Virus record (IMG/VR): IMGVR_UViG_3300012007_000007
Span: 99,434 to 163,433 of that record
DNA: 64,000 nt
Strand: one strand, 5' to 3'
Source: a virus
Taxonomy: Duplodnaviria; Heunggongvirae; Uroviricota; Caudoviricetes
Shown: in pieces, positions 81 through 24,530 of the stretch
Layout: every line of letters begins with the position of its first letter
Position numbering within the stretch: position 1 is the first letter of the stretch
Made by a program: the position numbers and the translations under genes
Notes under the pieces: model-generated
What the model saw: the letters and a program-made list of their open reading frames with translations, nothing else
Told to the model about the DNA's origin: nothing
The model's database searches: none

Positions 81-118
81 GTCTATCGGGTCAGGGATGG
101 GATGGCGGGTTATCCGAG
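81..118 (+). promoter_or_regulatory. class-I repeated early promoter/operator-like element (degenerate copy)
   Basis: GTCTATCGGG-tcag-GGATGGGATGG; ~40 nt upstream of RBS of CDS 155. Confidence 0.5.
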
Positions 119-154
119 AGATAGCCATATAGGGAGTGGATAAAGGAGGTTATT

Positions 155-511
155 ATGTTAGGTATTATGAAGACTATTCGGGACGATTTCCTGGACTTTG
201 TCCGTGTGATGTTCCCCGATGGACGGATTGTAAAGCCGTCCAACGACTCACTGTATGAAGCGGACGCAGAAGCCATCGGCCTTGCCGTCAGTTCCAACTG
301 TGTAGATGTGTTCGCAAGAGTGTTGGTGGGCACTACCCCCATCTACATTGAACGGAGCTACAGCCTGGGGCAGGAGAGCAAGGTTCTGTATTTCGCAAAG
401 CTCTACGAGAGTTCCGATGAGTCCGGGGATGTGTTCGGGAGTTACATTGCCGAGACCGAGAGCGAGGATGTCCGGGAGTTCCTGCGTGCCGTGCGTGCGT
501 GGGTGAAGTAG
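155..511 (+). CDS. hypothetical early protein (118 aa)
   Basis: ORF track; AAAGGAGG RBS 8 nt upstream; own upstream element and terminator. Confidence 0.6.
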   Translation: MLGIMKTIRDDFLDFVRVMFPDGRIVKPSNDSLYEADAEAIGLAVSSNCVDVFARVLVGTTPIYIERSYSLGQESKVLYFAKLYESSDESGDVFGSYIAETESEDVREFLRAVRAWVK

Positions 512-550
512 CCATAGACCCCATACCCTGCGGGGTCAGCCCGATGAGAA

Positions 551-586
551 CCTCCCGTGGGAACACGGGAGGGATTCTTTTTTCTC
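551..586 (+). terminator. intrinsic terminator
   Basis: CCTCCCGTGGGAACACGGGAGG hairpin + ttcttttttct. Confidence 0.55.
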
Positions 587-626
587 CGGAGGCCCGGGCA
601 GCGGCGTCCCCGCGGGACTTCCCGTC

Positions 627-668
627 ATCTAACGGGTGCGGGATGGGATGCCCGGGAGGTGCGGGAGT
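627..668 (+). promoter_or_regulatory. class-I element
   Basis: TCTAACGGGtgcGGGATGGGATGCCCGGGAggtgCGGGAG. Confidence 0.55.
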
Positions 669-714
669 TGCCTATCGGTGTATATGGCGAAATTGCCATA
701 AAAGGAGGTATGCT

Positions 715-1062
715 ATGGGATTGCGTGCGACTGTAATAAAGAAGTATGAGGTTTCCTACGGGGACACCCAGGGATTCAACTACGATTCGGAGGTCTTGGC
801 TGACCTGCTGAACCATTTCTGCGATTCGGCATATTGTGGCGGGGGCTATCACTCCACAAATGCCATCTGGGAAGTCCCCAGGGGGGAAATTCAGGGAATG
901 GTGGACAGGATTTCCTCTATGACCGACACCGAATTTGCCGAGGCTTGCGAGAAGGCCACGGGAACAGACAACTACACCCGGGAGGAAGTCCTGGACGTGT
1001 TCCGGGGCTGGCTTGCGGAAACGCCCGCCGACAGCCCGTATGTGCGATTCGGCTGGCTGTAA
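715..1062 (+). CDS. hypothetical early protein (115 aa)
   Basis: in-frame ATG (residue 73 of ORF 499..1062) 8 nt after AAAGGAGG. Confidence 0.6.
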   Translation: MGLRATVIKKYEVSYGDTQGFNYDSEVLADLLNHFCDSAYCGGGYHSTNAIWEVPRGEIQGMVDRISSMTDTEFAEACEKATGTDNYTREEVLDVFRGWLAETPADSPYVRFGWL

Positions 1063-1163
1063 GAGGCCTCCTGGCCTGGCGGAAGCTCCCGGTGAATGCC
1101 GGGGGCGTTCCTTTTTGCCCGGGTGGCGGGGCGACGGAGCCCTTCCCGGCGGGAACTCCCGGT

Positions 1164-1205
1164 GTCTATCGGGTTCGGGATGGGATTCCCGGGAGGGCGG
1201 GGCCG
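1164..1205 (+). promoter_or_regulatory. class-I element
   Basis: GTCTATCGGGttcGGGATGGGATTCCCGGGAGGGCGGGG. Confidence 0.55.
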
Positions 1206-1238
1206 TAGCCATTTTTTCTTTGGAAAAAGGAGGCCATT

Positions 1239-1637
1239 ATGCTGATAAGGATAGACCAGGATGTATTCAATGCACTGAAGGCAAAGCTTGACGGCAGCCG
1301 TGCGGCCGATGAATACGTGCAGGCGAAGGCTGCGGAGAGCGGCGAGGTCATCGGCTTGCCAATCCGAGCTGCCGAGGTTGCCGAAGCTGAAGGGCTAGTC
1401 GGGCATATCAAGACCACCGGGGAAATAGACCCGTGGCACGGCCCGAGAGACCCATACATTGTCGTGACCTACGACAGCGGGGACACCGAGCTGGACGCCG
1501 AGAGGTGCGAAACCCTGGCGGACGCCGTATGCTATATGGTGAACACGGTAAAGGCCGGGGGTTGTTCCTATGCGGAACTGTGCGTGGACAACAACACGGG
1601 CGAAGCCATATATGACGTTATGAAGTGGAGTAATTGA
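1239..1637 (+). CDS. hypothetical early protein (132 aa)
   Basis: ORF track; AAAAAGGAGG RBS. Confidence 0.6.
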   Translation: MLIRIDQDVFNALKAKLDGSRAADEYVQAKAAESGEVIGLPIRAAEVAEAEGLVGHIKTTGEIDPWHGPRDPYIVVTYDSGDTELDAERCETLADAVCYMVNTVKAGGCSYAELCVDNNTGEAIYDVMKWSN

Positions 1638-1653
1638 CCCTGCCGAGCACCTC

Positions 1654-1690
1654 CCGGGAATTCCCCGGGAGGCCTTCTTGTTTCCTGGCG
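1654..1690 (+). terminator. intrinsic terminator
   Basis: CCTCCCGGGAATTCCCCGGGAGG hairpin + ccttcttgtttcc. Confidence 0.55.
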
Positions 1691-1742
1691 GCCTGAAGCT
1701 CCAGATGGCGGCTTCCTGAGTCTTCCGCCGGGAGCTCCCGGT

Positions 1743-1775
1743 ATCTATCGGGTGCCGGATGGGATGCCCGGGAGG
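1743..1775 (+). promoter_or_regulatory. class-I element (truncated, palindrome missing)
   Basis: ATCTATCGGGtgccGGATGGGATGCCCGGGAGG with no gene directly downstream. Confidence 0.4.
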
Positions 1776-1836: not shown

Positions 1837-1937
1837 TATAAATACCTTCCCGGAGTCTCCCGTCAAATCCAATCCCGATACTTGGGAACTCCCGGGAAGA
1901 ATTCTTTACCGCGTATCGCCGCCCGTGTGGTATGCCA

Positions 1938-1975
1938 TCTATCGGGTCGGGGATGGGATAAGCGGCGGTTCGGGG
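1938..1975 (+). promoter_or_regulatory. class-I element (degenerate)
   Basis: TCTATCGGGtcgGGGATGGGATAAGCGGCGG. Confidence 0.45.
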
Positions 1976-2013
1976 GTATAGACCATATTATGGGTGAACT
2001 TATGGAGGTATCT

Positions 2014-2253: not shown

Positions 2254-2301
2254 TCTAACGGTAACAGGATGGGTTTCCCGGGTGTTCCCGGGAGTTTCCC
2301 A
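2254..2301 (+). promoter_or_regulatory. class-I element (degenerate)
   Basis: TCTAACGGtaacaGGATGGGTTTCCCGGGtgTTCCCGGGAGTTTCCCA. Confidence 0.5.
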
Positions 2302-2750: not shown

Positions 2751-2795
2751 TCTATCGGGCCGGGGATGGGATGCCCGGGAGAACCGGGGGTATGC
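2751..2795 (+). promoter_or_regulatory. class-I element
   Basis: TCTATCGGGccgGGGATGGGATGCCCGGGAGAACCGGGGG. Confidence 0.55.
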
Positions 2796-2866
2796 CATAG
2801 GTTGAGTGTAAACGGGCGGCCCGTCTGGCCCTGGATAGGCGGAGATAGTTACCTAGGGGGTAAGCT

Positions 2867-3067
2867 ATGATTAGGACACTGATTGTCACCATCCTGGTGG
2901 CCTTTGTCGCAGGTCTCGTTGCCGAGACCGCAGTGGTTGCCGTCGGCCTGGCCGGTGGCGTTGTTCCCGCCATTCACACGGGTGTTGAACTCGTGGTATG
3001 CTGGGCGGTCTGCCTGGCCGGGTTCGTGGGGAGCGTGCTCCACACGGTGCTCGGCAGGCGGTTCTGA
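2867..3067 (+). CDS. small hydrophobic membrane protein (66 aa)
   Basis: ORF track; two predicted TM helices; GGGGGTAAGCT upstream. Confidence 0.5.
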   Translation: MIRTLIVTILVAFVAGLVAETAVVAVGLAGGVVPAIHTGVELVVCWAVCLAGFVGSVLHTVLGRRF

Positions 3068-3221: not shown

Positions 3222-3268
3222 TCTAACGGGACGGGGATGGGATGCCCGGGAGAACCGGGAGTGTCCTA
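3222..3268 (+). promoter_or_regulatory. class-I element
   Basis: TCTAACGGGacgGGGATGGGATGCCCGGGAGAACCGGGAGtgTCCtATATT. Confidence 0.55.
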
Positions 3269-3295
3269 TATTGTAGGTAGCTTATGGAGGCTATT

Positions 3296-3694
3296 ATGGA
3301 AATGGTGGAAATGTGCGGTATGTTCAATGTCGTGGCTACAACAATGCCCGTTGACGATTTTTCAATGGATGACCCGGAAATCAGGTTCGTCCAGGCCGGG
3401 TGCGAGGTCATCCTGAAAGACCTCGGGAGTCTCGGCCCGAAGGCCGTTGTCACCGAGCAGGGCCCGAACGAATGCGACTTCGGCGAATGGGATTGCGACT
3501 TCCGCGTGGATGGGGACACAGATACCATCTACCGCCTCGTGGTAGTCCATACGGACGATACCGTAGGCATAGGTATCCAGGCCACCGTGAGCGAATGGGA
3601 TACCTGCTCCACCATTCATTCCCTGGGTGACGTGACGGAACTGGATGCCTCCCTCCCGGTGGTGAAGGCCGAGGCTGTGAAGGCGAGCCTCTAG
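3296..3694 (+). CDS. hypothetical early protein (132 aa)
   Basis: ATG 8 nt after conserved cTATGGAGG leader. Confidence 0.6.
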   Translation: MEMVEMCGMFNVVATTMPVDDFSMDDPEIRFVQAGCEVILKDLGSLGPKAVVTEQGPNECDFGEWDCDFRVDGDTDTIYRLVVVHTDDTVGIGIQATVSEWDTCSTIHSLGDVTELDASLPVVKAEAVKASL

Positions 3695-3711
3695 CCCGGG
3701 AGGCCCTCCCG

Positions 3712-3740
3712 GGGAACTCCCGGGAGTTTTCTTTTTCTAA
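3712..3740 (+). terminator. intrinsic terminator
   Basis: CTCCCGGGGAACTCCCGGGAG + ttttctttttct. Confidence 0.55.
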
Positions 3741-3785
3741 CGGGACGGGGATGGGATGCCCGGGAGAACCGGGAGTGTCCCATAT
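3736..3785 (+). promoter_or_regulatory. class-I element
   Basis: near-identical to copy at 3222 (tandem paralogous cassettes). Confidence 0.55.
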
Positions 3786-3809: not shown

Positions 3810-4340
3810 ATGGCTATGAAATACCATTACAACGTTCACGTCATTCCTACTACCCCGGGGACTGACGCAACAATCTGGGTCGGGGTCACCATCAGCGAGA
3901 AGTATGTGTCCGATGACAGCTTCGTCACCCGGGACAGCGTGCTGTGGAACGCGGCCATCGCCCGTGCCAATGAGCTGTGCCCGGACATTGGCGAATGCGT
4001 CTGCGAGGAATGGAACGGCGGCGAGCCGGTGTATCCCTACACCCGCATTACCGAGGAACAGCGACTTCTCGCCCAGCGTCTGTGGAACGAATACAACGCA
4101 ACACTTGCCAAGAACGGGATGAAGCTCCACTATGACGTGGCTAACGGTGGCTTTTTCGTGGCAAGCACTGACCTTGAGAACGGTATGCTAAAGGACGGAA
4201 AGGGTGCTACTCCCGATGACCTTGATGCCGATGAGCTGGAACGTGTCGTAAACGATGGGGGTTTTGATGACGGTGCTGTAAATAACCCCCCTTGGTTCGT
4301 GGATTTCTACTCTTACACCCTAAAGGTGAAGAGGGCATAA
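3810..4340 (+). CDS. hypothetical early protein (176 aa)
   Basis: ATG after cTATGGAGGctaat; ORF track. Confidence 0.6.
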   Translation: MAMKYHYNVHVIPTTPGTDATIWVGVTISEKYVSDDSFVTRDSVLWNAAIARANELCPDIGECVCEEWNGGEPVYPYTRITEEQRLLAQRLWNEYNATLAKNGMKLHYDVANGGFFVASTDLENGMLKDGKGATPDDLDADELERVVNDGGFDDGAVNNPPWFVDFYSYTLKVKRA

Positions 4341-4348: not shown

Positions 4349-4385
4349 CCTCCCGGGGAACTCCCCGGGAATTTTTTCCTTTCCC
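4349..4385 (+). terminator. intrinsic terminator
   Basis: ACCTCCCGGGGAACTCCCCGGGAAT + tttttcctttcc. Confidence 0.55.
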
Positions 4386-4421
4386 GGGAGCTCCCGGGGC
4401 TGTTCCGGCCGGACTCCGGTG

Positions 4422-4468
4422 TCTATCGGAGCCGGGATGGGATGCCCGGGAGAACCGGGGGTCACCCA
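4422..4468 (+). promoter_or_regulatory. class-I element
   Basis: GTCTATCGGagccGGGATGGGATGCCCGGGAGAACCGGGGG. Confidence 0.55.
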
Positions 4469-4509: not shown

Positions 4510-4824
4510 ATGAAGAAGTTTTTTATCGCCCTTGCCGTAGCCGGGATTCTCGTCGGCTGTGGTGAACAGACCAAGGATGCGGCCAAGGAAACGGCACGCA
4601 GTGCGGGAAAGCTGGCCGTCACCGCGGTATCCGAGGCAGCCAGGGGCGTTGCCGATGTCACCGCTGACGCCGCGAAGGCGACCGCTGACGCCGCGAAGGC
4701 GAAAGCCGCCGAGCTGAAGGACTCCGCTGTCGCCAAGGCAACCGAAGCGAAGGACTCCGCTGTCGCCAAGGCCAAGGAAACGGTAAAGGCCGTGGCCGAC
4801 TCCGTTTCCAAGGGGGTGAAGTAA
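4510..4824 (+). CDS. putative lipoprotein with Ala/Lys-rich tandem repeats (104 aa)
   Basis: signal peptide + LVGC lipobox; repeated AKATADAAKAKAAELKDSAVAKA units. Confidence 0.55.
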   Translation: MKKFFIALAVAGILVGCGEQTKDAAKETARSAGKLAVTAVSEAARGVADVTADAAKATADAAKAKAAELKDSAVAKATEAKDSAVAKAKETVKAVADSVSKGVK

Positions 4825-5016: not shown

Positions 5017-5167
5017 GATATGCCGATTGAATGCTACAAGAGACCTTTCTAAAACAAAATTTTACAATATCCGCACTTGACTGCGGATATTTTTTTATCT
5101 ATCCGGTTTTGTGGAGTTGTCACTGGCAGCCTGGCGGAATTCCCGGGGAAGGCTGTTATGCCCGTTA

Positions 5168-5215
5168 TCTAACGGGTCCTGGATGGGAGAACCGGGAGAA
5201 CCGGGATACCCGCAT
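5168..5215 (+). promoter_or_regulatory. class-I element (degenerate)
   Basis: TCTAACGGGtcctGGATGGGAGAACCGGGAGAACCGGGATACCC. Confidence 0.45.
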
Positions 5216-5257: not shown

Positions 5258-5614
5258 ATGGCACAGAACAACGAAATTTCCACCCTCGCAAAGGTCACCA
5301 TCGGACGCTACGATGTCTCCGAGGGGAGCAGCGGCCGCTTCTGCATTGAAGTGGAGTTCCCCGGCGAACCTTCCCTCGTCGTGACCGAGGAAGACCCCGT
5401 GGCTTCCCTGGAATCCCCGGACGATACCTTCGTCACCCCCGACCTCTGCGACGAGGTGTACGACGTCCTGGAAAAGTCCGGGCTGGCAACCTACCTGGGC
5501 GGGGAATACTGCGACCCGAACCAGAACGGGGGCTTCTCGTGTGCGGTGTACCGGGTGAAGGCGGGAGAGGGCACTTTCATCGTCCGCACGGACTACGGCG
5601 TAACCGCCGAATAG
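5258..5614 (+). CDS. hypothetical early protein (118 aa)
   Basis: ATG after aaaATGGAGGcaaatact. Confidence 0.6.
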   Translation: MAQNNEISTLAKVTIGRYDVSEGSSGRFCIEVEFPGEPSLVVTEEDPVASLESPDDTFVTPDLCDEVYDVLEKSGLATYLGGEYCDPNQNGGFSCAVYRVKAGEGTFIVRTDYGVTAE

Positions 5615-5696: not shown

Positions 5697-5745
5697 TCTA
5701 TCGGGGCGGGGATGGGTTGTCCGGGAATACCGGGCATCCTTCATT
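5697..5745 (+). promoter_or_regulatory. class-I element
   Basis: TCTATCGGGgcgGGGATGGGTTGTCCGGGAATACCGGGCATCC. Confidence 0.5.
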
Positions 5746-5773: not shown

Positions 5774-6343
5774 ATGCAAGAATTCCGTGTAACTGCTACC
5801 ATTGACACCCGCAGGGCGACCGGAGACCGCACCACACAAATTCTCGGTGTCGTAGTCACGCTCGACTACCCGCAATCCGGCCACCACTTGACCGTCCATC
5901 TTTCCGGGGTGAGGCTGGAGAATTTCCACGCCTGCAACCCCTCGGTGAAGCTTCCGCCCGACATCATCTTTGAAGGCGAAGGCATACACGAGGCCATCTG
6001 CACTGCCATTCTGGAAGAGGTGGTGAAGGCTGCCAATTGGAGCATCCCGGAGGTTGACGTGGTGAACGAGGCACGTGCCCGCATGAAGGGGCTGATTGAC
6101 TTCCTTGCCGCCAACGGTCAGAGCCTCGGCTTTGACGATGACAGCGACACGCTGTTCATCGCCCCGAAGGGACTGCAATGGGATAACCAGGGTAAGGGCG
6201 GAAATGATTTAATCCCGGTAACGGCTGAGGAACTGGAATACCGTTCTGAACACTGCGACATCTGCTCGGAAAAGATTTGCTTCTGCCGTCCGAATGACGG
6301 GAGCGAATTCCTTGAGAAGAACGGCCTCCGCAAGGCAAGATAA
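5774..6343 (+). CDS. hypothetical early protein (189 aa)
   Basis: ORF track; ATAGGAGGACATT RBS. Confidence 0.6.
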   Translation: MQEFRVTATIDTRRATGDRTTQILGVVVTLDYPQSGHHLTVHLSGVRLENFHACNPSVKLPPDIIFEGEGIHEAICTAILEEVVKAANWSIPEVDVVNEARARMKGLIDFLAANGQSLGFDDDSDTLFIAPKGLQWDNQGKGGNDLIPVTAEELEYRSEHCDICSEKICFCRPNDGSEFLEKNGLRKAR

Positions 6344-6365
6344 TCTTTAACCCTCCCCACGGAGA

Positions 6366-6400
6366 CTCCCGGGAAACTCCCGGGGGTCTTTCTTTTTTCC
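6366..6400 (+). terminator. intrinsic terminator
   Basis: CTCCCGGGAAACTCCCGGGGG + tctttcttttttcc. Confidence 0.55.
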
Positions 6401-6461: not shown

Positions 6462-6510
6462 TCTAACGGGTTACGGATGGGATGCCCGGGTTTCCCGGGA
6501 GTGGACCATA
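6462..6510 (+). promoter_or_regulatory. class-I element
   Basis: TCTAACGGGttacGGATGGGATGCCCGGGTTTCCCGGGAG. Confidence 0.55.
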
Positions 6511-6552
6511 TGCGAAGCAGGAATTCAACTTGAACCTATGGAGGATTGAACT

Positions 6553-7014
6553 ATGAGTATGGGATATGGTGCTAACTTTGCCGAAGTGGTAACTAAGGAA
6601 AGTCTGGCGAAGGTTATTGGCGACCGTGGCTGCCGCAGGGTAAACGCTTTCATTAAGGCGTTCAAGAACTATGAACTGGATGAAGGCGAATACGGCTGTC
6701 GGGATGAGCTGTGCGATGCCATTATGGGTATTGGCTGTACTCCGGCAGGTATTGACACTGACCGGAAGGAGTTTAAGGCACTGAAGGCAAAGTGGGATGC
6801 TATCGCCACGAAGTTTAAGGAAGCGACAAAGATTGCCCTCTGGTGCAACTGGCATTCCATTGATGAGGATGGCGACCGATACGATGAGGTGGACGGACTC
6901 TACTTTGATGTCGGCCTGAAGTCCATCTGGCAGCCAACGAAGGCTTACCGGGAGGCGATGGCAAAGTTCGGAAAGAACTTCATCACTCGTAAGTTTTTCG
7001 TAACATTTGGCTAA
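6553..7014 (+). CDS. hypothetical early protein (153 aa)
   Basis: ORF track; cTATGGAGGattgaact leader. Confidence 0.6.
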   Translation: MSMGYGANFAEVVTKESLAKVIGDRGCRRVNAFIKAFKNYELDEGEYGCRDELCDAIMGIGCTPAGIDTDRKEFKALKAKWDAIATKFKEATKIALWCNWHSIDEDGDRYDEVDGLYFDVGLKSIWQPTKAYREAMAKFGKNFITRKFFVTFG

Positions 7015-7023
7015 AAAAGTAAG

Positions 7024-7062
7024 GAAATCCCTCCCGCTACCCTCCGGGAGGGATTTTTTGTA
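7024..7062 (+). terminator. intrinsic terminator
   Basis: AATCCCTCCCGCTACCCTCCGGGAGGGATT + ttttgtat. Confidence 0.55.
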
Positions 7063-7099
7063 TAAACTGCGGAAAACAACCAGGAACATAGGTTACGAT

Positions 7100-7666
7100 A
7101 TGATGGGCGACATTATCCAGTTCCCGAACGCATACCAGGGGAACAACCAATACGCAATGCAGAAACGGCAGGAACTTGCCTGGCTGAGGGAACGCCTGGA
7201 CAACATCAAGCAGAAGCTGGCAATGGCGAATATTTCCGGGACAAGGGATGACATCTACGACCTGGAACTCCAGGCCCGCAACCTCCTGCGACGCAGGCGA
7301 TTTCTGCTGGGCGGGGGAGACCCTGCGGACAATTCCGTCCAGGAAGATAACCATTACCCGGACGAGCTCGTCATGCTGGACGATATGCTTGAGCTGAAGA
7401 TGGAGGAATACGAGGAATGCGAGGGGGACGAGAATACCAACCCCGAGAAGGCGAGGATTGGCCGGGAATACGAGGAGATTGACGGCCTCAAGAGCTCAAT
7501 GAAGAAGGCTTGGTTTGCGGACGAGGAGTTTTCCGATGCCGACCTTGACAAATACTACAAGCTCCTGGCGAAGTACGTCGTACCTCCCGGGTTCAATAAC
7601 GGGAACAGCGAAGGCCTCACCAACGAAGAATTCATCGCCAAGTACGGCAAGGACCTCCAGGACTAG
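7100..7666 (+). CDS. hypothetical acidic protein (188 aa), no class-I element of its own
   Basis: first ATG after terminator (residue 32 of ORF 7007..7666); weak RBS AGGTTACGAT. Confidence 0.5.
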   Translation: MMGDIIQFPNAYQGNNQYAMQKRQELAWLRERLDNIKQKLAMANISGTRDDIYDLELQARNLLRRRRFLLGGGDPADNSVQEDNHYPDELVMLDDMLELKMEEYEECEGDENTNPEKARIGREYEEIDGLKSSMKKAWFADEEFSDADLDKYYKLLAKYVVPPGFNNGNSEGLTNEEFIAKYGKDLQD

Positions 7667-7674
7667 CCCGGCTC

Positions 7675-7735
7675 TCTAACGGGTTACGGATGGCTTCCCC
7701 GGGATTTCCCGGGGATTTCCCATATATTGGGCGAG
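7675..7735 (+). promoter_or_regulatory. class-I element (variant with duplicated palindrome)
   Basis: TCTAACGGGttacGGATGGCTTCCCCGGGATTTCCCGGGGATTTCCCATATATT. Confidence 0.5.
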
Positions 7736-7792
7736 GGCTTTCCCAGGGCCCTACCGGGGGTTTCCCGGGAAACCGTAATATGGAGGTTAGAT

Positions 7793-8113: not shown

Positions 8114-8261
8114 GCAAGACTTCTGCATAGCAACCTCCTAACACCTCCCGTAGCGATACGGGAGGTTCGTCGTATGGAGGAGGATTTTTTATTATATTTC
8201 CTGAAGCTTCCCCGCCGAGCAGTTCAGGAATTCCCCGGAGGCTTCCCGGTGTCTAACGGGA

Positions 8262-8715: not shown

Positions 8716-8760
8716 CCCAACTACCTGTCCACCGTATCCCGCATCCCACCGCCCGTTATG

Positions 8761-16232: not shown

Positions 16233-16235
16233 TCA

Positions 16236-16875: not shown

Positions 16876-16937
16876 CCCCGGCTTCCCGGGAAACTCCCGA
16901 AAAATTTTTTGTTTTCCCGTCCGGACCCCGGACGTAA

Positions 16938-16985
16938 CCTATCGGGGCTGGGATGGGATGCCCGGGAACCCCGGGGAATTCCCAA
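16938..16985 (+). promoter_or_regulatory. class-I element
   Basis: CCTATCGGGgctGGGATGGGATGCCCGGGAACCCCGGGGAATTCCCA. Confidence 0.55.
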
Positions 16986-17016
16986 GTAGGCAACAGACAA
17001 GCAAATGGAGACAAGC

Positions 17017-17598
17017 ATGAACCTCAACTACATCACCGAACCGCTGCCCCAGTACGTCACCCGGACCAAGGGAGAGGGCATGAAGCACACCCGCACATCC
17101 TACCACTGCCCCCTGTGCCGGACCGTAATCCCGAAGCGCAACTTCGAGGACCACGTCCTCACCGAGCACGCCGTGCGCGCCCAGGAATGCTTCGCCATGC
17201 TCTACGGCGTACCCTGGCCCGCCAAGTGCAAGGTCTGCAACCGCGACCTCCATTACTCCCCCGCCCACAAGGGCTTCCAGAGGGTCTGTGGGACGTGCAT
17301 CATGGGCAGCGCCGTTCCGACCGGCACCGAATACAAGAACGCAGACGACGCCAGGCAGCACATCGCCAAGCTGGAAGCGCTGCTCGCCAACGCCAAGGAA
17401 GAGGCCAAGAGGCTCGACCGCGAGGCCGAACTCGACAGGATTCCCCTCAAGGAACTCCCGTTCCCCTCCCGGAAGGACCCGAGATTCCTGATGCGGGTAT
17501 CCAAGCTGATGCGCATGTACGCCATCAACAGCGAGAAGGAACGCCTCGTGGACCTCGCGAACACCATCGACGCCAAGCTGAAGGAAGTCACCGCATAA
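17017..17598 (+). CDS. zinc-finger protein with C-terminal coiled-coil (193 aa)
   Basis: CPLCRT...HVLTEH and CKVCNRDLHY C2H2/C4-like motifs. Confidence 0.6.
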   Translation: MNLNYITEPLPQYVTRTKGEGMKHTRTSYHCPLCRTVIPKRNFEDHVLTEHAVRAQECFAMLYGVPWPAKCKVCNRDLHYSPAHKGFQRVCGTCIMGSAVPTGTEYKNADDARQHIAKLEALLANAKEEAKRLDREAELDRIPLKELPFPSRKDPRFLMRVSKLMRMYAINSEKERLVDLANTIDAKLKEVTA

Positions 17599-17706: not shown

Positions 17707-17753
17707 TCTAACGGGTACAGGATGGGATGCCCGGGAGAACCGGGGAATTCCCA
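17707..17753 (+). promoter_or_regulatory. class-I element
   Basis: TCTAACGGGtacaGGATGGGATGCCCGGGAGAACCGGGGAATTCCCA. Confidence 0.55.
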
Positions 17754-17783
17754 ACAGGAAAGCGTAACCTATGGAGGAAACCT

Positions 17784-18470
17784 ATGAAGATTGAAACCTA
17801 CCTTGAGACCCTGGTCCAGGTCCCAGGACGCAGCAACTTCGACACGACGGAACTGAACCGCCAGCTCGATATCGTCAAGGAATGCGTCCTTGAAGCCTCC
17901 CGGCCCTACCGCATGGGAACTTGCTGGGCAAACTGTTCAGCAGAATGGATTGACTTCCGCTTCACCCTCGTGAGCGACGACATCCGTTCAGAGGACACCT
18001 TCCGTCTGGACATTTCCGTGGACGCTACCGACCCCAAGTGGTATGTCCACCTGTTCGTCGAGGACAGGAACGGAAACCAGGCCCTCCCGGTGGAAGCCGA
18101 GTTCAAGTCCTCCGACGGCTCGTTCAAGTCCCTTGAGCAGTGCCTCGCCGATTTCCGTGCAGAGTACGACCTGAAGGTAGCCGACCTTGCCCGGGAACTG
18201 ATTGAAAACAATTTTTCCGACAAGGAGGAAGCAATCGAACAGATTCGGGCTTACCTGAAGGTAGCGACCGACCTCGCCAGGGAAAACGGGTTCAGGCTCG
18301 CCCTGGACACATCAATCGCAAGCGTCTGCGTCTACATCGTACCCGCATCGGCCACAATCCGTGAAATCGGTACTCCCGGGGAAATCGACCGCGAATCCCT
18401 GCCTACACTGGACTTCGACTCCGTAAAGTTCAACTCCGACCACGACGCCTTCTGCCTCGAAAAGGAATAA
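17784..18470 (+). CDS. hypothetical protein (228 aa)
   Basis: ATG after cTATGGAGGaaacct. Confidence 0.6.
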   Translation: MKIETYLETLVQVPGRSNFDTTELNRQLDIVKECVLEASRPYRMGTCWANCSAEWIDFRFTLVSDDIRSEDTFRLDISVDATDPKWYVHLFVEDRNGNQALPVEAEFKSSDGSFKSLEQCLADFRAEYDLKVADLARELIENNFSDKEEAIEQIRAYLKVATDLARENGFRLALDTSIASVCVYIVPASATIREIGTPGEIDRESLPTLDFDSVKFNSDHDAFCLEKE

Positions 18471-18709: not shown

Positions 18710-18728
18710 ATTTTTTGCCTCCGTAATG

Positions 18729-18770
18729 AACCTCCCGGAATTTCCCGGGAGGTTTTCTTGTCTTTCCCGG
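18729..18770 (+). terminator. intrinsic terminator
   Basis: AACCTCCCGGAATTTCCCGGGAGGTT + ttcttgtctttcc. Confidence 0.55.
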
Positions 18771-18816: not shown

Positions 18817-18863
18817 TCTATCGGGACCGGGATGGGATGCCCGGGATTCCCGGGAGATTCCCA
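18817..18863 (+). promoter_or_regulatory. class-I element
   Basis: TCTATCGGGaccGGGATGGGATGCCCGGGATTCCCGGGAGATTCCCA. Confidence 0.55.
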
Positions 18864-18892: not shown

Positions 18893-19285
18893 ATGGACAG
18901 GCAAGTATACGTACTGTACGGGACGCTGTGGACGGCGACCTCGTGCACCCCGTGGGTTCCCGTGCTGTTCGACGACTACGGCAGGGCGCGGGAATACATG
19001 GTGGGGGAGTTCAGGAACTACCTGAAGTCATGCGGATACCTGGGCAAGGACGGTGATACCGTCGTCCCGACCCGGGAGGTCGACTCCATCACCGTGAACG
19101 GCGTGAGCGTGACCGACCCCATATTCGGCAGGTTCCGCGTGTCGGAGCTGCTCGACGTCCAGCTGGAGACCCTGCGCGCGGCGGAGGAGTTCTCCGGCAT
19201 CGAATGGAGGCTCCGCAGCCTCCCGGTACACGCCGGGTCCGAAAGCACCGAAGGCGCCCCCGGGAGGTTCCGCATCGACGCCTGA
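18893..19285 (+). CDS. hypothetical protein (130 aa)
   Basis: ATG after ACGGAGGaaccct. Confidence 0.6.
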   Translation: MDRQVYVLYGTLWTATSCTPWVPVLFDDYGRAREYMVGEFRNYLKSCGYLGKDGDTVVPTREVDSITVNGVSVTDPIFGRFRVSELLDVQLETLRAAEEFSGIEWRLRSLPVHAGSESTEGAPGRFRIDA

Positions 19286-19287
19286 CG

Positions 19288-19335
19288 TCTATCGGGTCCG
19301 GGATGGGATGCCCGGGAACCCCGGGAGATTCCCAT
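19288..19335 (+). promoter_or_regulatory. class-I element
   Basis: TCTATCGGGtccGGGATGGGATGCCCGGGAACCCCGGGAGATTCCCA. Confidence 0.55.
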
Positions 19336-19370: not shown

Positions 19371-19805
19371 ATGTCATACGAGAACATCATCATTTCCAAG
19401 CTCACCCCGGCCCAGAAGGACGAGGTAATCGCCGAGCTCATCGCCGAGCTGAAGGCGAAGGACAGCCTGCTCGGCGACACCGGCGAGGCCGCCACCGCCA
19501 CCGCCGACATGCGCCCGAGCGACTTCGACTGCCTCGCGGTCACCAGGGTGTCCGTGTTCCCGTTCACCCAGTCAGGAACCTGCTCCCGCACCAAGGGCAT
19601 CGCCACCGTCACCCTGAACGACCAGCTGGTACTCCGCGGCGTGCGAATCGTCGAGAACGGCAATGAACTCTCCGTCGAAATGCCGCCCGACCCGTTCTTC
19701 AAGGGGGAAGGAATCCGCAGTATCGTAGCGCCAGTCACACGCCAGCTCCGCGAACATATCGAGAACTGTGTGCTGGAAATGTACCGCCACCAGAAGGAGA
19801 TTTAA
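19371..19805 (+). CDS. hypothetical protein (144 aa)
   Basis: ATG after cTATGGAGGaaacc. Confidence 0.6.
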   Translation: MSYENIIISKLTPAQKDEVIAELIAELKAKDSLLGDTGEAATATADMRPSDFDCLAVTRVSVFPFTQSGTCSRTKGIATVTLNDQLVLRGVRIVENGNELSVEMPPDPFFKGEGIRSIVAPVTRQLREHIENCVLEMYRHQKEI

Positions 19806-19907: not shown

Positions 19908-19955
19908 TCTATCGGGCCCGGGATGGGATGCCCGGGATTCCCGGGAGATTCCCAT
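19908..19955 (+). promoter_or_regulatory. class-I element
   Basis: TCTATCGGGcccGGGATGGGATGCCCGGGATTCCCGGGAGATTCCCA. Confidence 0.55.
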
Positions 19956-19994: not shown

Positions 19995-20483
19995 ATGTCT
20001 TTTTCTACCACTACCCGGGTTTCGGACCACTACAGCCTCGCAGACCTGCTGAACGCAGACTGCCTCGACTCGGCCTACCACCCGGAGGTCCTGGAACTGC
20101 TCCGCCGCTACTACCCGGACCCGGACCTCGAAGACGAAATTGACGCGGACCTGTCCCTGTCCGACCCCGAATACGTAATCAAGACCTGCGAGAACCTCTC
20201 CTACGACGACGCTGTATGCGTGGTCAACTACTTCCACGTCCACCTCCCTGGCGACGAGGTCGCCGAGGAACTCGCCGCAATCATCAACGGGGACGTGGTG
20301 GAAGGACTCCACGACACCGGAACCAGGTCCTTCGTCGTCAGCTTCGTCGGGAGGGTCACCATCCAGGCCGACTCGGAAAACGACGCGGTCACCAAGCTCT
20401 CCGGCCTCGACCTCTTCACGAGGGAAGCGCAGGACCACGGGGCGGAATTCGTCGCAGTCGACCAGGTAACTGAAGACAACTAA
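19995..20483 (+). CDS. hypothetical acidic protein (162 aa)
   Basis: ATG after AGATGGAGGataacaca. Confidence 0.6.
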   Translation: MSFSTTTRVSDHYSLADLLNADCLDSAYHPEVLELLRRYYPDPDLEDEIDADLSLSDPEYVIKTCENLSYDDAVCVVNYFHVHLPGDEVAEELAAIINGDVVEGLHDTGTRSFVVSFVGRVTIQADSENDAVTKLSGLDLFTREAQDHGAEFVAVDQVTEDN

Positions 20484-21017: not shown

Positions 21018-21065
21018 TCTATCGGGACAGGGATGGGATGCCCGGGATTCCCGGGGATTTCCCAT
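21018..21065 (+). promoter_or_regulatory. class-I element
   Basis: TCTATCGGGacaGGGATGGGATGCCCGGGATTCCCGGGGATTTCCCA. Confidence 0.55.
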
Positions 21066-21095
21066 GCCGACAGTACACTTGCAGGAGACATACCC

Positions 21096-21368
21096 ATGAA
21101 ATTCGTACACAGCGCAAACCCCAGGATGTCCAACCCCACCGAAGCACAGCTCGACACGCTCGAGAAGGCCGTCCAGACCGTGGACAGGAACCTCTTCGTT
21201 TCCGAGGTCGACTTCGAGAAGGGAACCGTGTCCCTGGGAATGGTCTACAACCCGGGAGAACCCTCCCAGTGGAAGCAGGAGGACTTCCTCGTCGTCAACG
21301 TCGCGTGCGACTCCGTAGCCGCGCTCTTCCACGACGTCTACTCCGCCGCATACGACCGCTGCATCTGA
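21096..21368 (+). CDS. hypothetical protein (90 aa)
   Basis: in-frame ATG (residue 84 of ORF 20847..21368) after CAGGAGACATACCC. Confidence 0.55.
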   Translation: MKFVHSANPRMSNPTEAQLDTLEKAVQTVDRNLFVSEVDFEKGTVSLGMVYNPGEPSQWKQEDFLVVNVACDSVAALFHDVYSAAYDRCI

Positions 21369-21393: not shown

Positions 21394-21440
21394 CCTATCG
21401 GGACCCGGATGGGATGCCCGGGAAACCCCGGGAATTCCCA
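21394..21440 (+). promoter_or_regulatory. class-I element
   Basis: CCTATCGGGaccCGGATGGGATGCCCGGGAAACCCCGGGAATTCCCA. Confidence 0.55.
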
Positions 21441-21529
21441 CCAGGGAACCACACAGCCCGGCCCCGGGAACTCCCGGGAAACCGAACGGAAACTTTTTTT
21501 CTTACAAGAAACTTACAGGAGATACCACC

Positions 21530-21919: not shown

Positions 21920-21920
21920 C

Positions 21921-21967
21921 CTAACGGGTCCAGGATGGGATGCCCGGGAACCCCGGGGATTTCCCAT
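21921..21967 (+). promoter_or_regulatory. class-I element
   Basis: CTAACGGGtccaGGATGGGATGCCCGGGAACCCCGGGGATTTCCCA. Confidence 0.55.
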
Positions 21968-22009: not shown

Positions 22010-22522
22010 ATGAACAAGCTGCTCATCTACATCGTGGCAACCGCCATCGTCATCCTCCTCGGCTTCGACGCGTACCTCGCGCTCACCGGGCAGGCAACCG
22101 CAACCTCCCTCGTCGAGCTCGCCGTAGGCGCCGGGGCAATCATCGCGTTCTCCGCGGCCGCCCTCGTGCGTACCGTCGGCGGGTTCCGAATCGGGACCGG
22201 CCGCACCAACCCCGTCGAATGCAAGCTCGACGAAATACTGGAAGAACTCTCGGCATGCCGCGACACCATCGGCGAAACAAACACCGCCGTCGAGAACGCA
22301 CGCGAGGACTTCGACTCCCGTCTCGGACTGAAGCCCGACGCATGGGAAGCGACAGTCAACACCGTCGACGAACACGGGAAGCTCGTCCCGGTATACGCCC
22401 TCGCCCCAGAGGATTCCCAGGAAGAGGCCGTCTGCGCCGCCCGTACCTCCCTCGAGGCGCGTGACGCGGAAGGCAACCCCGTCGAGAACGCCCGAATCAC
22501 GCTCCGTCCCGTATTCTACTGA
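22010..22522 (+). CDS. membrane protein (170 aa)
   Basis: two N-terminal TM helices; ATG after ACAGGAGACATTCCC. Confidence 0.55.
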   Translation: MNKLLIYIVATAIVILLGFDAYLALTGQATATSLVELAVGAGAIIAFSAAALVRTVGGFRIGTGRTNPVECKLDEILEELSACRDTIGETNTAVENAREDFDSRLGLKPDAWEATVNTVDEHGKLVPVYALAPEDSQEEAVCAARTSLEARDAEGNPVENARITLRPVFY

Positions 22523-22537
22523 TTTCCTCCATAACCC

Positions 22538-22580
22538 CCCATTGGGGAACCTCCCGGTACCTGCCGGGAGGTTTTTGTTT
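22538..22580 (+). terminator. intrinsic terminator
   Basis: AACCTCCCGGTACCTGCCGGGAGGTT + tttgtttttc. Confidence 0.55.
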
Positions 22581-22800
22581 TTCTCCCGGGAAACCTCCCC
22601 GGAACCTCCCGGGAATTCCCGGGATTTTTTTCTTGTTCCCCCCGGGAACCTCCCACGGAATTCCTGCTTTCCCCCCGGGAACATCTCACGTAATTCCTGC
22701 TTTCCCCCCGGGAATCTCCCACGGAATTCCCGGGGTTTCCACCGGGAAACTCCCGGAAACCTCCCCGGGGCTTCCCGGGAATCCCGCGAAAAAATATTTT
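22560..22800. repeat. GC-rich tandem repeat tract (~38-bp units TTCCCCCCGGGAAnnTCCCACGGAATTCCTGCT, ~3 copies plus CCCGGGAA-type simple repeats)
   Basis: visible direct repetition; no credible ORF. Confidence 0.6.
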
Positions 22801-22858
22801 ATTTTTAACCCCGTGAGCCCAGCTCGGGAACGGTACCGGAAGGAAATGCCCCGCCGTC

Positions 22859-22905
22859 CTCTATCGGGACCGGGATGGGATGTCCAGGATTTTCCAGGTT
22901 TCCGG
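22859..22905 (+). promoter_or_regulatory. class-I element (palindrome mutated, CCCGGG to TCCAGG on both arms)
   Basis: CTATCGGGaccGGGATGGGATGTCCAGGATTTTCCAGG; no gene downstream. Confidence 0.4.
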
Positions 22906-22988
22906 CCCGTTTTCGCCATTTCCACATACCGGTCAGAGCAGTGTCCCCCGGGAGGTCCAGATGCTGGGAAGAACTGACCCCCGCCGCC

Positions 22989-23040
22989 CTCTATCGGGAC
23001 CGGGATGGGATGCCCGGGAGGACCTCCCGGATTCCCCCGG
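22989..23040 (+). promoter_or_regulatory. class-I element followed by a repeat tract instead of a gene
   Basis: CTATCGGGaccGGGATGGGATGCCCGGGAGGACCTCCCGG. Confidence 0.5.
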
Positions 23041-23340
23041 GTTCTCCAGGATGTTCCCGGGTTGCTCCCGGAGGCTCCCAGGTTGCTCCCGGAGCATTCG
23101 GGTTGCCTCCCAGGTTCCCCCAGGTTGCTCCCGGATTCCCCCGGGTTGCTCCCGGAGGCTCCCGGATTCCCCGGGTTGCTCCCGGGTTGCTCCCGGGAGG
23201 TTCCCAGGTTGCCCCCGGGGCATTCGGGTTGCCCGACATCGGGCTCCCCAGGTTCCCCCGGGTTGCTCCCGGGAGGTTCCGGGGAGGTTCCGGGAGTTAT
23301 CCGGGGGGTTCCTGGGAGGTTTCACGGAGTCCCGGGATGT
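23030..23340. repeat. degenerate 12-bp tandem repeat tract (GGTTGCTCCCGG-like, >15 units)
   Basis: read directly; the Pro/Gly-rich ORFs here (22875..23538) are judged spurious. Confidence 0.6.
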
Positions 23341-23420
23341 TCCACGGGAGGTACGGGTGCCGTTTTTCGCGAAATTTCGGGGGTGCCTGCCGGGAAAAGT
23401 GGCGGAAAGTGGGGAATTTT

Positions 23421-23520
23421 CCCCGATTTTTATTACTTTCCGCTTACAGGATACTTACAGAATACTTATGGAAATATTATTGAAATATTAAATTTTACTT
23501 GGAAAATACTTGCAGAATCC
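23421..23520. repeat. AT-rich island with iteron-like direct repeats (ATACTTACAG / ATACTTATGG / ATACTTGCAG, plus GAAATATTA x2); candidate replication origin
   Basis: about 75% AT in a ~62% GC context; 4-5 direct ~10-bp repeats; FtsK-like and RadC genes immediately downstream. Confidence 0.4.
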
Positions 23521-23743
23521 GGGAAGTGCTGTTTTTGAGCGAAAAACGCCATTTTTGCCTCTCGTTGAACGAGGGTTTGACCTCCCGGGGAACCCTGTTT
23601 CTCCCGTGGAATCCGGGGCATCCCGGCGGGCCCGTCCGTTCCGGGGCCGCATCCCGCGGGTCGGGGGCTGGCGCCGGGGTACCAAGTTGGTTTCCGGTTC
23701 CCGTTTCCTTCCCCGTTCCCGGGGGAGGCGGGGCTGTCCGCCA

Positions 23744-23790
23744 CCTATCGGGTCGTGGATGGGATGCCCGGGAGGACCGGGGGATTCCCA
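23744..23790 (+). promoter_or_regulatory. class-I element
   Basis: CCTATCGGGtcgtGGATGGGATGCCCGGGAGGACCGGGGGATTCCCA. Confidence 0.55.
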
Positions 23791-23852
23791 TGTGCATGGC
23801 GGGAATGAAACATTTACGTGCGCGGGGCATGGCCTCGCGGGAGGATAGCCGC

Positions 23853-24488
23853 ATGATGGCGAGGGAATTTGCTTTGGGCGTACTGGTCCTGGCGGGGAGC
23901 GCCGTGTTCGGGGTGGAGCCGGGGCTTCCGGCGGGTTTCGACCTGAGCTGGAGGCCTATGGGAGCCAACACCGGGAAGCTGGTGGAGGACGTGGAGGCGG
24001 TATACGAGGACGGTGATGGCAAGGTGCGCTGCCAGTACATCAGGGGGGTGGACCTCCCGGCGGTCCGGGAGTACGGGGAGTGGGTGTGCCCGGCGGTGAC
24101 GCTGTGGCACATCCGGGAGGTGGACATAGAGCGTTTCGGGGGGAAGTGCGGCGGTCTGCTGTGCATGTACGACTACACGATGCCCGGGGACCTCCCGACC
24201 GCGACCACGGTGAAGCGGGTGGCGTGGTGCCCGGACGTGGTTGTGACCCGTCGGGAGGGGGGCTACCTGCGTATCCGTGGCGGGCTCCGATTCGGACGGG
24301 GTGACAGGCCCGAGCCGTACTACAACAGCGGGGTGATACCTATGAGTTTCCCCCTGGACCCGGAGCTTGCGGAGTGCGGCGGGGAGAACTACCGGGAGCA
24401 GCGGAGGTTCTGGCTGGAGGAGTTCAGCGCGCCGGGGTACGGCGTGAGGGAGGAGGCCGGGGAGACGGACAGCTGGGACGGGACCTAA
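23853..24488 (+). CDS. membrane-anchored protein (211 aa)
   Basis: ATGATG after GGGAGGATAGCCGC; N-terminal hydrophobic helix FALGVLVLAGSAVFG. Confidence 0.5.
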   Translation: MMAREFALGVLVLAGSAVFGVEPGLPAGFDLSWRPMGANTGKLVEDVEAVYEDGDGKVRCQYIRGVDLPAVREYGEWVCPAVTLWHIREVDIERFGGKCGGLLCMYDYTMPGDLPTATTVKRVAWCPDVVVTRREGGYLRIRGGLRFGRGDRPEPYYNSGVIPMSFPLDPELAECGGENYREQRRFWLEEFSAPGYGVREEAGETDSWDGT

Positions 24489-24530
24489 CGGGTCCGGGAT
24501 GGGATGCCCGGGAGGTCCGGGGAATTCCCA
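24483..24530 (+). promoter_or_regulatory. class-I element (last copy)
   Basis: CCTAACGGGtccGGGATGGGATGCCCGGGAGGTCCGGGGAATTCCCA. Confidence 0.55.

Follow-up and report, generated by a model that had tools for sequence, protein, structure and literature searches.

We analysed a window of 64,000 nucleotides from a tailed virus of the Caudoviricetes (IMG/VR record IMGVR_UViG_3300012007_000007), in which 36 copies of an element of about 48 bp, here called the class-I element, stand one after another before the small genes of the left-hand part. This element is very probably a promoter. The explanation that we favour overall, and consider likely as a whole, is that of a phage-specific promoter of about 48 bp with a phage-encoded reader, which in addition serves as a recombination handle; as judged from sequence, almost all small genes of a variable 27-kb block in a giant phage would be transcribed from it. 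The sequence read amounts to about 84 kb, out of a genome of at least 222 kb, the cluster of its own sigma factor reaching a 222-kb contig. That the genes of the block are expressed early is an assumption.

The window was scanned for GGATGGGATG with at most one mismatch and compared with 100 dinucleotide-preserving shuffles. We found 38 matches, compared with 6.8 ± 2.8 in the shuffles, none of which (0/100) reached 38, and 35 of the 38 lie on the plus strand between 95 and 24506; the matches at 14937 (within a gene) and 16946 (overlapping 16951) are no separate elements. Searching the whole window with a profile hidden Markov model built from 33 copies (nhmmer, cut-off E<1e-5) gave 36 elements, every one on the plus strand and inside 82-24530, with none on the minus strand and none past 24530. 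Three of them, at 2254-2300, 5168-5215 and 7675-7721, were caught by the profile only and not by the plain scan. With an additional half copy at 12063-12082, the total agrees with the 'about 37' copies of the original prediction, which had been made from the letters of the window; its consensus boxes and palindrome are likewise as it described them, and its decayed orphans at 1743, 22860 and 12063 are indeed truncated or decayed copies. Its statement that the element is confined to 0-24.5 kb is correct inside the window but not overall, as at least nine further variant copies (CTAYCGGG-N4-GGATGGGTTCCCCGGG) are found in the left flank, to about 2.5 kb left of position 1. In this flank (L014), which was recovered from another assembly, four of the copies follow each other in tandem within about 900 bp of gene-free DNA, and farther left lie tightly packed genes without the element.

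The plan of the element is CTAWCGGG-N4-GGATGGGATG-CCCGGG(loop)CCCGGG-N2-3-TTCCCA/CCATA. CTAWCGGG, GGATGGGATG and CCCGGGA are nearly invariant, as are the first 29 positions altogether, with a 17-nt invariant block, GGATGGGATGCCCGGGA; CTATC replaces CTAAC in half of the copies. From the G-box to the downstream box the distance is 18 nt in nearly all copies and 18-21 nt in relatives, that is, the spacing of the two boxes is fixed. Conservation is lowest in the downstream box, with 'CCA' alone common to all copies. The left 8 kb have CCATA or CCTAT there, and TTCCCA is confined to 13.5-24.5 kb, so that the TTCCCA given in the original prediction applies to the second region and not to the first. 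CCCGGG is about tenfold enriched in the array (131 of the 165 copies in the window fall within the first 24 kb), and GAATTC, which is found inside several elements as GGGGAATTCCCA, is mildly enriched. No TTGACA/TATAAT-like hexamers are present within the element, which thus does not match the sigma70 consensus; separate sites resembling TTGACA-N17-TATAAT are found at a few other places in the array, two of them near-perfect (Table 1). When the window was compared with Rfam, just 13 tRNAs were found at the gathering score and the element matched no known structured RNA family. The literature on GGATGGGATG returned only unrelated primer sequences, that on Fibrobacter promoters and giant phages held nothing usable on the element, and a 17-mer scan of IMG/VR gave four single matches, indistinguishable from chance.

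The position of the copies relative to genes and terminators argues for a promoter. All of them lie between genes, or at most overlap the last codons of the gene before. In 31 of the 36 copies a start codon comes next, 54-110 nt from the start of the G-box (median 67) and almost always with a GGAGG ribosome-binding site, and 32 of the 42 genes in the block have an element 55-130 nt upstream. We did not find the conserved leader at a set distance that had been described with it: the distance from the element to the ribosome-binding site varies, with the ATG 54-122 nt from the G-box start, and ATGGAGG is present before only about half of the genes. This variable distance, combined with the fixed internal spacing, fits a promoter better than a translation signal. 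The strongest internal argument is given by the terminators. A terminator-like GC hairpin (CCTCCCGGG-loop-CCCGGGAGG followed by a T-run) is located 10-100 nt before the element in 12 copies, in the left 12 kb and at a few later sites, and in these 12 gaps between terminator and ribosome-binding site the element is the sole shared sequence. The downstream gene needs a new promoter there, and the element should therefore contain it. The promoter would be composed of the CTAWCGGG upstream box, 4 variable nt, GGATGGGATGCCCGGGA (at about -45 to -29, taking the downstream box as -10), a spacer with the GC hairpin and a weaker -10-like CCATA or TTCCCA, all at fixed spacing; a variable leader of 15-45 nt and a strong GGAGG ribosome-binding site would follow. 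The -24/-12 spacing of sigma54 promoters was also considered and rejected, since the G-box does not fit it.

In 31 of the 36 copies a stable hairpin starts at the first C after the G-box, with a median of -10.4 kcal/mol (15% of random 20-mers of the same region reach -5). The stem has 4-7 bp, the loops are of 3, 4, 5 or 7 nt with at least 10 sequences, and the 3' arm is displaced by 0-1 nt. A second hairpin (CCGGGAnnTCCCGG) stands immediately before CTAWCGGG in many of the left-hand copies. RNAalifold, run on 40 copies, gave only a 3-bp invariant CGG/CCG pairing and no covariation. This column-based test is defeated by the shifting position of the 3' arm, and the hairpin was measured copy by copy. 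With energies of -10 to -13 kcal/mol in the 31 copies, the hairpin could suggest that the element acts mainly in RNA, as a 5'-UTR or intercistronic module: it might stabilise the transcript, be processed by an RNase as the T7 RNase III sites are, or bind a translational regulator, with transcription starting elsewhere. Terminators are missing between most genes from 13.5 to 22 kb, so that the element would be part of read-through transcripts, and the T.G pair of one copy is tolerated only on the sense strand. Against this, 12 copies follow terminators with no other promoter candidate in the gap, no co-varying structure or Rfam match was obtained, and the invariant boxes CTAWCGGG and GGATGGGATG are mostly unpaired; moreover, the four tandem copies of the left flank stand in gene-free DNA and the distance to the ribosome-binding site varies. 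We give an RNA module on its own a very slim chance, while the 3' half of the element could have an RNA role alongside the promoter function.

We also compared the element with its counterparts in related sequences. The close relatives are two metagenome contigs 85-94% identical to the window (L005/L006 and L008/L009), and they have the same element in the same arrangement. In five distant lineages (L017, L018, L020, L022 and L023) the order small genes, FtsK, RadC, sigma is kept; their sigma proteins are 48-59% identical to that of the window, and their contigs reach 235-472 kb, one lineage having only 30 kb. Each distant lineage has its own repeated upstream element of the same plan: after a CCACCGGG-like box and a G-run box comes a spacer of about 18-21 nt, in many cases with a hairpin, and then a -10-like ATA, ACA or TAGAAA (Table 1). 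In all six lineages the kinship of the upstream box can still be recognised (CcAcCgGG against CTAWCGGG), whereas the G-run box and the -10-like box are lineage-specific, L020 and L022 having (C/T)ATA; the GC hairpin is usually at the same place with a different stem sequence. In the related genomes the element is again intergenic and oriented as the genes, which speaks against the alternative named in the original prediction, a repeat resembling a miniature inverted-repeat transposable element. This or another small mobile repeat was rejected, as all 36 copies have the same orientation and lie between genes, likewise in relatives. We also discarded FtsK-orienting polar sequences, which had been considered for the FtsK-like gene that closes the array and for the single orientation: the element has 48 bp, is strictly intergenic and is tied to start codons. 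The idea of a promoter for a dedicated non-host factor is thus supported by position, orientation, fixed geometry, upstream terminators and relatives, but the evidence singles out no one reader.

The reader would be phage-encoded rather than the host housekeeping holoenzyme, and the leading candidate is a divergent sigma factor encoded at 26558-27334, next to the array. This protein is of the sigma70 family over its full length: it matches PHROG 351 (3e-14), its best full-length NCBIfam alignments are with SigK and SigE, far below the curated cut-offs, its relatives match Pfam regions 2 and 4, and its AlphaFold model (predicted local distance difference test score 67) has whole chains of sigma32, sigmaS, sigmaB and sigmaA as top Foldseek matches. 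SigK and SigE recognise a -10 of the CATA type, which is echoed by CCATA in the left-hand copies and by (C/T)ATA in L020 and L022. The region upstream of its gene is AT-rich and contains no class-I element (4/4 lineages checked). In the window (26434-26518) this region holds TTGACG-N16-TATTTT at 26442-26469, and TTATATTT is common to all lineages (window, L017, L018 and L020). The most likely reader would be host core RNA polymerase with this SigK/SigE-like sigma, in a cascade where a host-type promoter would drive the sigma gene and the sigma would drive the class-I block. The recognition helix of its region 4 differs between lineages, and regions 2.3-3.0 are nearly invariant. We regard the assignment of this sigma to the class-I element as tentative, with a little under an even chance. 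A similar situation is known from Bacillus phage SPO1, whose middle promoters are read by the phage-encoded sigma gp28: here too a phage sigma70-family protein adjoins a gene block with a conserved non-host promoter, with at least two boxes at fixed spacing. However, the present element is much longer and has a third box upstream, a hairpin in its spacer and a -10 that is weak and rich in GC, and its link with the sigma is that of a candidate only.

Several observations weigh against this reading. Within the element, conservation is lowest at the putative -10, for which the right-hand copies have TTCCCA; so GC-rich a -10 is unusual for a sigma70-family promoter. The most conserved 29 bp are upstream of the usual main sigma contacts. 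The stems never co-vary within the family, and the palindrome could be a protein-binding site instead of a structure. Across lineages the identities of the sigma (59/55/50%) are close to those of FtsK (64/65/56%) and RadC (61/58/49%); the sigma evolves no faster than the other two, co-variation of sigma and element is indistinguishable from shared ancestry, and faster divergence was dropped as a sign of co-evolution. The invariant sigma regions 2.4-3.0 would fit the invariant class-II motif described below equally well, in which case class I could be read by something else. Finally, an RNA polymerase encoded outside the sequence read is possible.

This last point leads to the proposal that the element is the promoter of a sigma-independent phage RNA polymerase, either single-subunit (T7/N4-type) or multisubunit as in jumbo phages. 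The enzyme would be a virion component or an early product, with its gene outside the 84 kb. The 29-bp block would be its binding site, with transcription starting at or near the hairpin and each mRNA having a protective 5' stem-loop. Such a polymerase would account for the fact that the strongest conservation is one block of about 29 bp, above that of typical sigma promoters, and not two hexamers, and for the stable hairpin that starts from the same nucleotide in 31 of the 36 copies. The end of the block, GCCC/GGGAGA, resembles a T7-like initiating sequence; an injected polymerase would explain the missing host-type promoters, if the genes are truly early, and the sigma could serve the class-II motif instead. 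We nevertheless think it rather unlikely. No polymerase-like gene is present in the window or among the genes called in the left flank and in the 20-kb loci of the relatives, and the downstream box fixed at 18 nt, together with the -10-like (C/T)ATA boxes of the left copies, L020 and L022, suits a two-part sigma promoter. The N4-like polymerase named in the original prediction fits poorly because the loops, of 3-7 nt, vary in sequence. The virion RNA polymerase of N4 has three early promoters with 3-nt loops conserved in sequence; these share with the present element a GC stem of 5-7 bp and small loop inside a conserved promoter-like element at one genome end, but here there are about 46 copies with variable loops, and no N4-like polymerase in the sequence read. 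T7 promoters are contiguous over 23 bp without internal palindrome, and RNase III sites are long RNA hairpins without invariant unpaired boxes. The T7 system resembles the array in its many near-identical long signals between genes in a single orientation, possibly with a 5'-proximal stem-loop; it differs in that the element has an internal palindrome and invariant unpaired boxes and that no polymerase gene was found in the sequence read. A related proposal is that the spacer GC hairpin is obligatory for recognition, being extruded as a DNA hairpin or cruciform and read with the flanking boxes by the phage sigma or a new polymerase (the N4 principle in an unrelated lineage), and that the 48-bp module is the unit of cassette exchange. 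We find this doubtful; if true, giant phages would trade their host-takeover and anti-defence genes by means of an integron counterpart without integrase.

The weak -10-like box could also be read by the host primary sigma, with a phage activator reading the upstream block as a substitute for the -35. The middle promoters of T4, which depend on MotA and AsiA, are the model for such a promoter. The box is TATAAT-like in some lineages (TATAAATA, CATATT, and GATAAT in L022), the conserved block is where an activator would sit, and a helix-turn-helix (HTH) protein of 176 amino acids encoded on the minus strand at 37026-37556, its gene order kept across the related lineages, is a candidate as a second DNA-binding partner for one of the promoter classes. 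On the other side, the TTCCCA of the right-hand copies is a poor -10 for a primary sigma, no MotA or AsiA homologue was detected and a dedicated sigma is encoded beside the array; we hold an activator of host polymerase to be improbable.

A second promoter-like motif, TTGCTATATTTG (class II), is identical in the window, the left flank and all five distant lineages. The window has 10 copies of it between 31 and 60 kb, oriented like the gene that comes next, frequently with a terminator just before them and without a conserved -35. Its TGnTATATT is an extended -10 and its TAnnTTTG a Bacteroidota-type -7 box, and class II may simply be a host-type promoter. As class I is lineage-specific and TTGCTATATTTG identical, the reader of class I would evolve with the phage and that of class II would be invariant.

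The copies of the element, being near-identical direct repeats, are substrates for homologous recombination, and the preferred reading includes this second role: the 40-odd repeats would allow 'element + gene' cassettes to be deleted, inserted and relocated. We chained the alignments of the window to two close relatives and obtained 28 block ends inside the array. Fourteen of these are within 10 nt of an element, compared with 2.8 by random placement (P<1e-5), and 17 are within 30 nt, compared with 4.5. The indel events include gains, losses, replacements and one relocation. The units absent from a relative are 1195-1722, 3299-3736 and 15720-16237; extra units are present in a relative at ~620-648, 4350-4461 and 13576-13653; segments replaced between elements are 8798-11374 (methylase and GmrSD) and 6500-7792; and the unit 1934-2252 has a different location in a relative. 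In the event at 15.7-16.2 kb, the one element of the relative has the left flank of the copy at 15683 and the right flank of that at 16236, with the crossover inside the identical element core. Between orthologous sequences, the element core is 91.9% identical, compared with 83.9% for third codon positions and 86.7% for other intergenic DNA. Cassette recombination also explains the orphan and half copies: the one at 21395 lost its gene and that at 12063 was fused to a different promoter.

Such breakpoints, and the CCCGGG enrichment, would also fit an element that is mainly a site for a protein: a dimeric repressor or silencer might use TCCCGGGA as its operator, or a site-specific recombinase that moves cassettes might act on it as on attC. 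CTCCCGG-type arrays with a period of 11 or 21 bp in the gene-free 22546-23352 and in L014 7340-7420 suggest a protein that binds this motif, and GTCTAAC fits the RYYYAAC inverse core of attC sites. Yet the half-site spacing varies by 9-10 bp and the stems of other lineages differ at the same place, which is easier to reconcile with a structure than with a fixed operator; CTATC stands in place of CTAAC in half of the copies, neither invariant box is matched by an inverted partner, and the proteins scanned contained no integrase or recombinase domain. In addition, the resolved junction is within identical sequence, as homologous recombination predicts. A site of this kind as the main function has a slim chance, and an operator overlapping the promoter remains compatible with the explanation that we favour. 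Integron attC sites as such were rejected: there are no inverted R''-L''/L'-R' partners, no minus-strand profile matches and no integrase domain in the proteins scanned, and the element is 5' of the genes. Integrons and the array are alike in their co-oriented small genes of unknown function separated by a conserved repeat, with a content that varies cassette by cassette among relatives, but here the repeat is at promoter distance, it lacks an inverted architecture and its junctions resemble homologous recombination.

Among the known systems closest to the array are the PeSL (promoter-early stem-loop) cassettes of T4-type phages (Arbiol et al. 2010, PMC2839356; Comeau et al. 2014, PMC4122927). 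As in PeSL cassettes, a composite of conserved stem-loop, promoter and ribosome-binding site precedes small unknown genes of a variable early region in one orientation, decayed and half copies occur, and close relatives differ by insertions, deletions, replacements and relocations whose ends fall at the motif. In contrast, PeSL promoters match the host sigma70 consensus (TTGACA-N17-TATAAT or close variants) with the stem-loop upstream of the -35, whereas the promoter here is of a non-host type and lineage-variable, with an invariant block of 17-29 bp, the hairpin inside the spacer and, in many copies, a second hairpin upstream; the phage is also an unrelated, uncultivated giant phage. The class-I array is therefore an analogue of PeSL and no member of it. 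What is new relative to the known systems is the length of the promoter and its plan of three boxes plus hairpin, its lineage-specific versions in a clade of giant phages and the PeSL-like shuffling on a promoter of non-host type.

Regulatory annotation grounded in experiment is almost lacking for giant phages that are known solely from metagenomes. For one such lineage, a regulatory map is supplied here, in which about 45 genes of unknown function stand behind a lineage-specific promoter class; it also includes a second, invariant class and a candidate sigma. How a divergent sigma or other factor reads DNA could be studied on the six lineage-specific versions of the element, which make up a natural co-varying set. 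The breakpoints extend the PeSL idea, conserved promoters as recombination handles for accessory genes, past the T4-type phages, and the cassettes marked by the element are a good place to seek anti-defence and host-takeover genes.

Table 1. Class-I elements and other features of the window, with element versions of the distant lineages. Elements are listed by nhmmer profile match, and other evidence is stated in each row.
Feature	Position	Strand	Evidence and remarks
Element, weak hairpin; then gene 155-511	82-128	+	E=5.9e-9; upstream terminator-like hairpin at positions 6-27
Element; then gene 715-1062	627-675	+	E=3e-12; terminator 551-572; indel breakpoint here
Element; then gene 1239-1637	1165-1212	+	Terminator 1085-1106; breakpoint 1195
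Orphan, truncated after CCCGGGAG; sigma70-like TTGACA-N17-TATATT next, 1808-1836	1743-1774	+	Terminator 1650-1672 upstream
Element, degenerate hairpin; then gene 2014-2253	1937-1983	+	Element and gene placed elsewhere in L009
Variant copy (GGATGGGTTT); then gene 2333-2626	2254-2300	+	E=2e-7; breakpoint 2267
Element; then possible small gene 2867-3067	2751-2798	+	Terminator 2721-2735
Element; then gene 3296-3694	3222-3269	+	Near-identical duplicate of the 3736 copy, including leader
Element; then gene 3810-4340	3736-3783	+	Terminator 3706-3726 directly upstream; relative without 3299-3736
Element; then gene 4510-4824	4422-4468	+	Terminator 4351-4370; extra 718-bp cassette here in a relative
Variant copy; then gene 5258-5614	5168-5215	+	E=1.6e-8; terminator 5066-5091
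Variant copy (GGATGGGTTG, T.G in stem); then gene 5774-6343	5697-5744	+	
Element; then gene 6553-7014	6462-6509	+	Terminator 6361-6391; breakpoint 6500
Variant copy (GGATGGCTTC); then gene 7793-8113	7675-7721	+	E=7.6e-7
Element, broken hairpin; then gene 8335-8715	8251-8299	+	
Inverted partial copy (CATCCCA..CCCGTTA)	8742-8758	-	Head-to-head with the 8761 copy; sole minus-strand fragment seen
Element, then sigma70-like TTGATA-N17-TAGATT, before EcoRI-like methylase gene 8896-9912	8761-8808	+	Breakpoint 8798
Element; then gene 11452-12009	11374-11421	+	Terminator 11288-11309; breakpoint 11374
Half copy (ATCTAACGGGGCCTGGATGG) fused to sigma70-like TTGACC-N17-TATAAT (12096-12124), before second methylase gene 12150-13115	12063-12082	+	
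Element overlapping stop codon of upstream gene; then gene 13185-13403	13111-13158	+	
Element; then gene 13654-13929	13576-13621	+	Extra 394-bp cassette here in a relative
Element overlapping final 12 nt of upstream gene; then gene 13999-14247	13918-13965	+	
Element; then gene 14353-14775	14273-14320	+	
Element; then gene 15251-15682	15175-15222	+	
Element; then gene 15762-16232	15683-15730	+	Cassette missing in L006, crossover inside element
Element; then gene 16315-16875	16236-16283	+	
Element; then gene ~17005-17598	16938-16985	+	Hairpin and T-run 16887-16899
Element; then gene 17784-18470	17707-17754	+	
Element; then gene 18893-19285	18817-18863	+	Terminator 18728-18755
Element; then SpoVG-domain gene 19371-19805	19288-19335	+	
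Element; then gene 19995-20483	19908-19955	+	
Element; then gene 21092-21368	21018-21065	+	
Orphan; hairpin and T-run follow	21395-21441	+	L005 has 412 bp more directly after
Element; then gene 22010-22522	21920-21967	+	
Decayed orphan (TCCAGG...TCCAGG)	22860-22901	+	Tandem-repeat region without convincing gene
Truncated copy inside open reading frame 22961-23491	22990-23024	+	Same repeat region as the 22860 orphan
Element; then gene 23853-24488	23744-23791	+	
Last element; then FtsK/SpoIIIE-like gene 24569-25720	24484-24530	+	
Divergent sigma70-family factor	26558-27334	+	Leading candidate reader of class I
HTH protein, 176 amino acids	37026-37556	-	Weak matches: transcriptional regulators, sigma region 4
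Class-II motif TTGCTATATTTG, window	31514, 36653, 38604, 40575, 44718, 47571, 51352, 52074, 53061, 60440		
Class-II motif TTGCTATATTTG, left flank (L014)	1809, 1889, 4034		L014 positions
EcoRI-like adenine methylase paralogues	8896-9912, 12150-13115		Flank GmrSD-N/HNH nuclease gene 9987-11237
tRNA cluster, 13 genes	54946-60208	-	
Protein of 767 amino acids, Cas12f/TnpB-type TNB domain	61576-63879	-	
L020 element			CCACCGGG-N7-CGGGGGATGCC-N19-ATAnnn
L022 element			CCACCTGGT-N3-GACGGGGGGAG-N~21-(C/T)ATAAn
L018 element			CCACCGTG-N5-CAGGGCGGGACGG-N18-(G/C)ACA
L017 element			CCACCACCGTGT-N5-GCAGGGAGGT...TTTGGGACACCT
L023 element			CACCCCCGGACGGTCCGGGGGA...GCCCGGGGGACNCCCGGGGT(A/G)GAAAAA

The proteins encoded in the array are almost all of unknown function, and of the 20 scanned only one has a Pfam domain above threshold (SpoVG). 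The open reading frame 22961-23491 is of low complexity (PGCSR repeats) and is probably no gene. The window encodes two EcoRI-like methylases, a GmrSD/HNH nuclease, an FtsK/SpoIIIE-like ATPase, RadC, the sigma-like protein, a CCA-adding enzyme, a MoxR-type ATPase, SprT, a polynucleotide kinase and a TnpB/Cas12-like protein; in L020, an OrfB_IS605/TnpB gene is found at the edge of the array. The tRNA cluster adjoins the gene of the CCA-adding enzyme (47907-49154) and that of the polynucleotide kinase-like protein (55234-55701), and the three together look like a module for tRNA supply and repair.

No capsid or terminase gene was present in the 84 kb, and it is by inference that we speak of a phage. 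The sequence belongs most probably to a giant phage lineage, since homologues of its sigma are on contigs of up to 235-472 kb and its own cluster reaches 222 kb. No relative was found in INPHARED, by megablast of the array or tblastn of the sigma, or in IMG/VR via the sigma. The sequence of the window is present in a gut metagenome (ENA ERZ28658117, scaffolds 186 and 92; SRR948090). GATC is absent from the 64 kb, where about 240 sites are expected, and also from the 20-kb loci of all five distant lineages; this lineage-wide avoidance points to strong selection by a GATC-specific restriction or Dam-dependent system.

Tandem repeats of the CTCCCGG(G/A) type, with periods of 11, 21, 33 and 63 bp (near the helical repeat), fill the gene-free 22546-23352 and L014 7340-7420, and could form a binding array for a TCCCGG-recognising protein, for example a centromere-like or origin-like site. 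The gene-free left edge of the array, about 900 bp at L014 6840-7745 (~2.1-3.0 kb left of position 1), holds CCCCCATACCCCCCATACCCCC, an AT-rich patch, repeated CCGGGAGCACCCGGGAGGAAC units and the four tandem variant elements; it may be a genome end or origin.

Concerning the host, positions 767-1560 of a 46-kb contig (L011, DGRZ01000002.1) from a metagenome-assembled genome, Fibrobacter sp. UBA4375, are 92% identical to window 23806-24599, including the last element, and past this match of about 800 bp the contig switches abruptly to GATC-containing DNA. The match is either a hint of a Fibrobacter host or the product of a chimeric assembly. One protein of the left flank has a weak Fib_succ_major match, and another small fragment (L010) was binned with a Bacillota metagenome-assembled genome.

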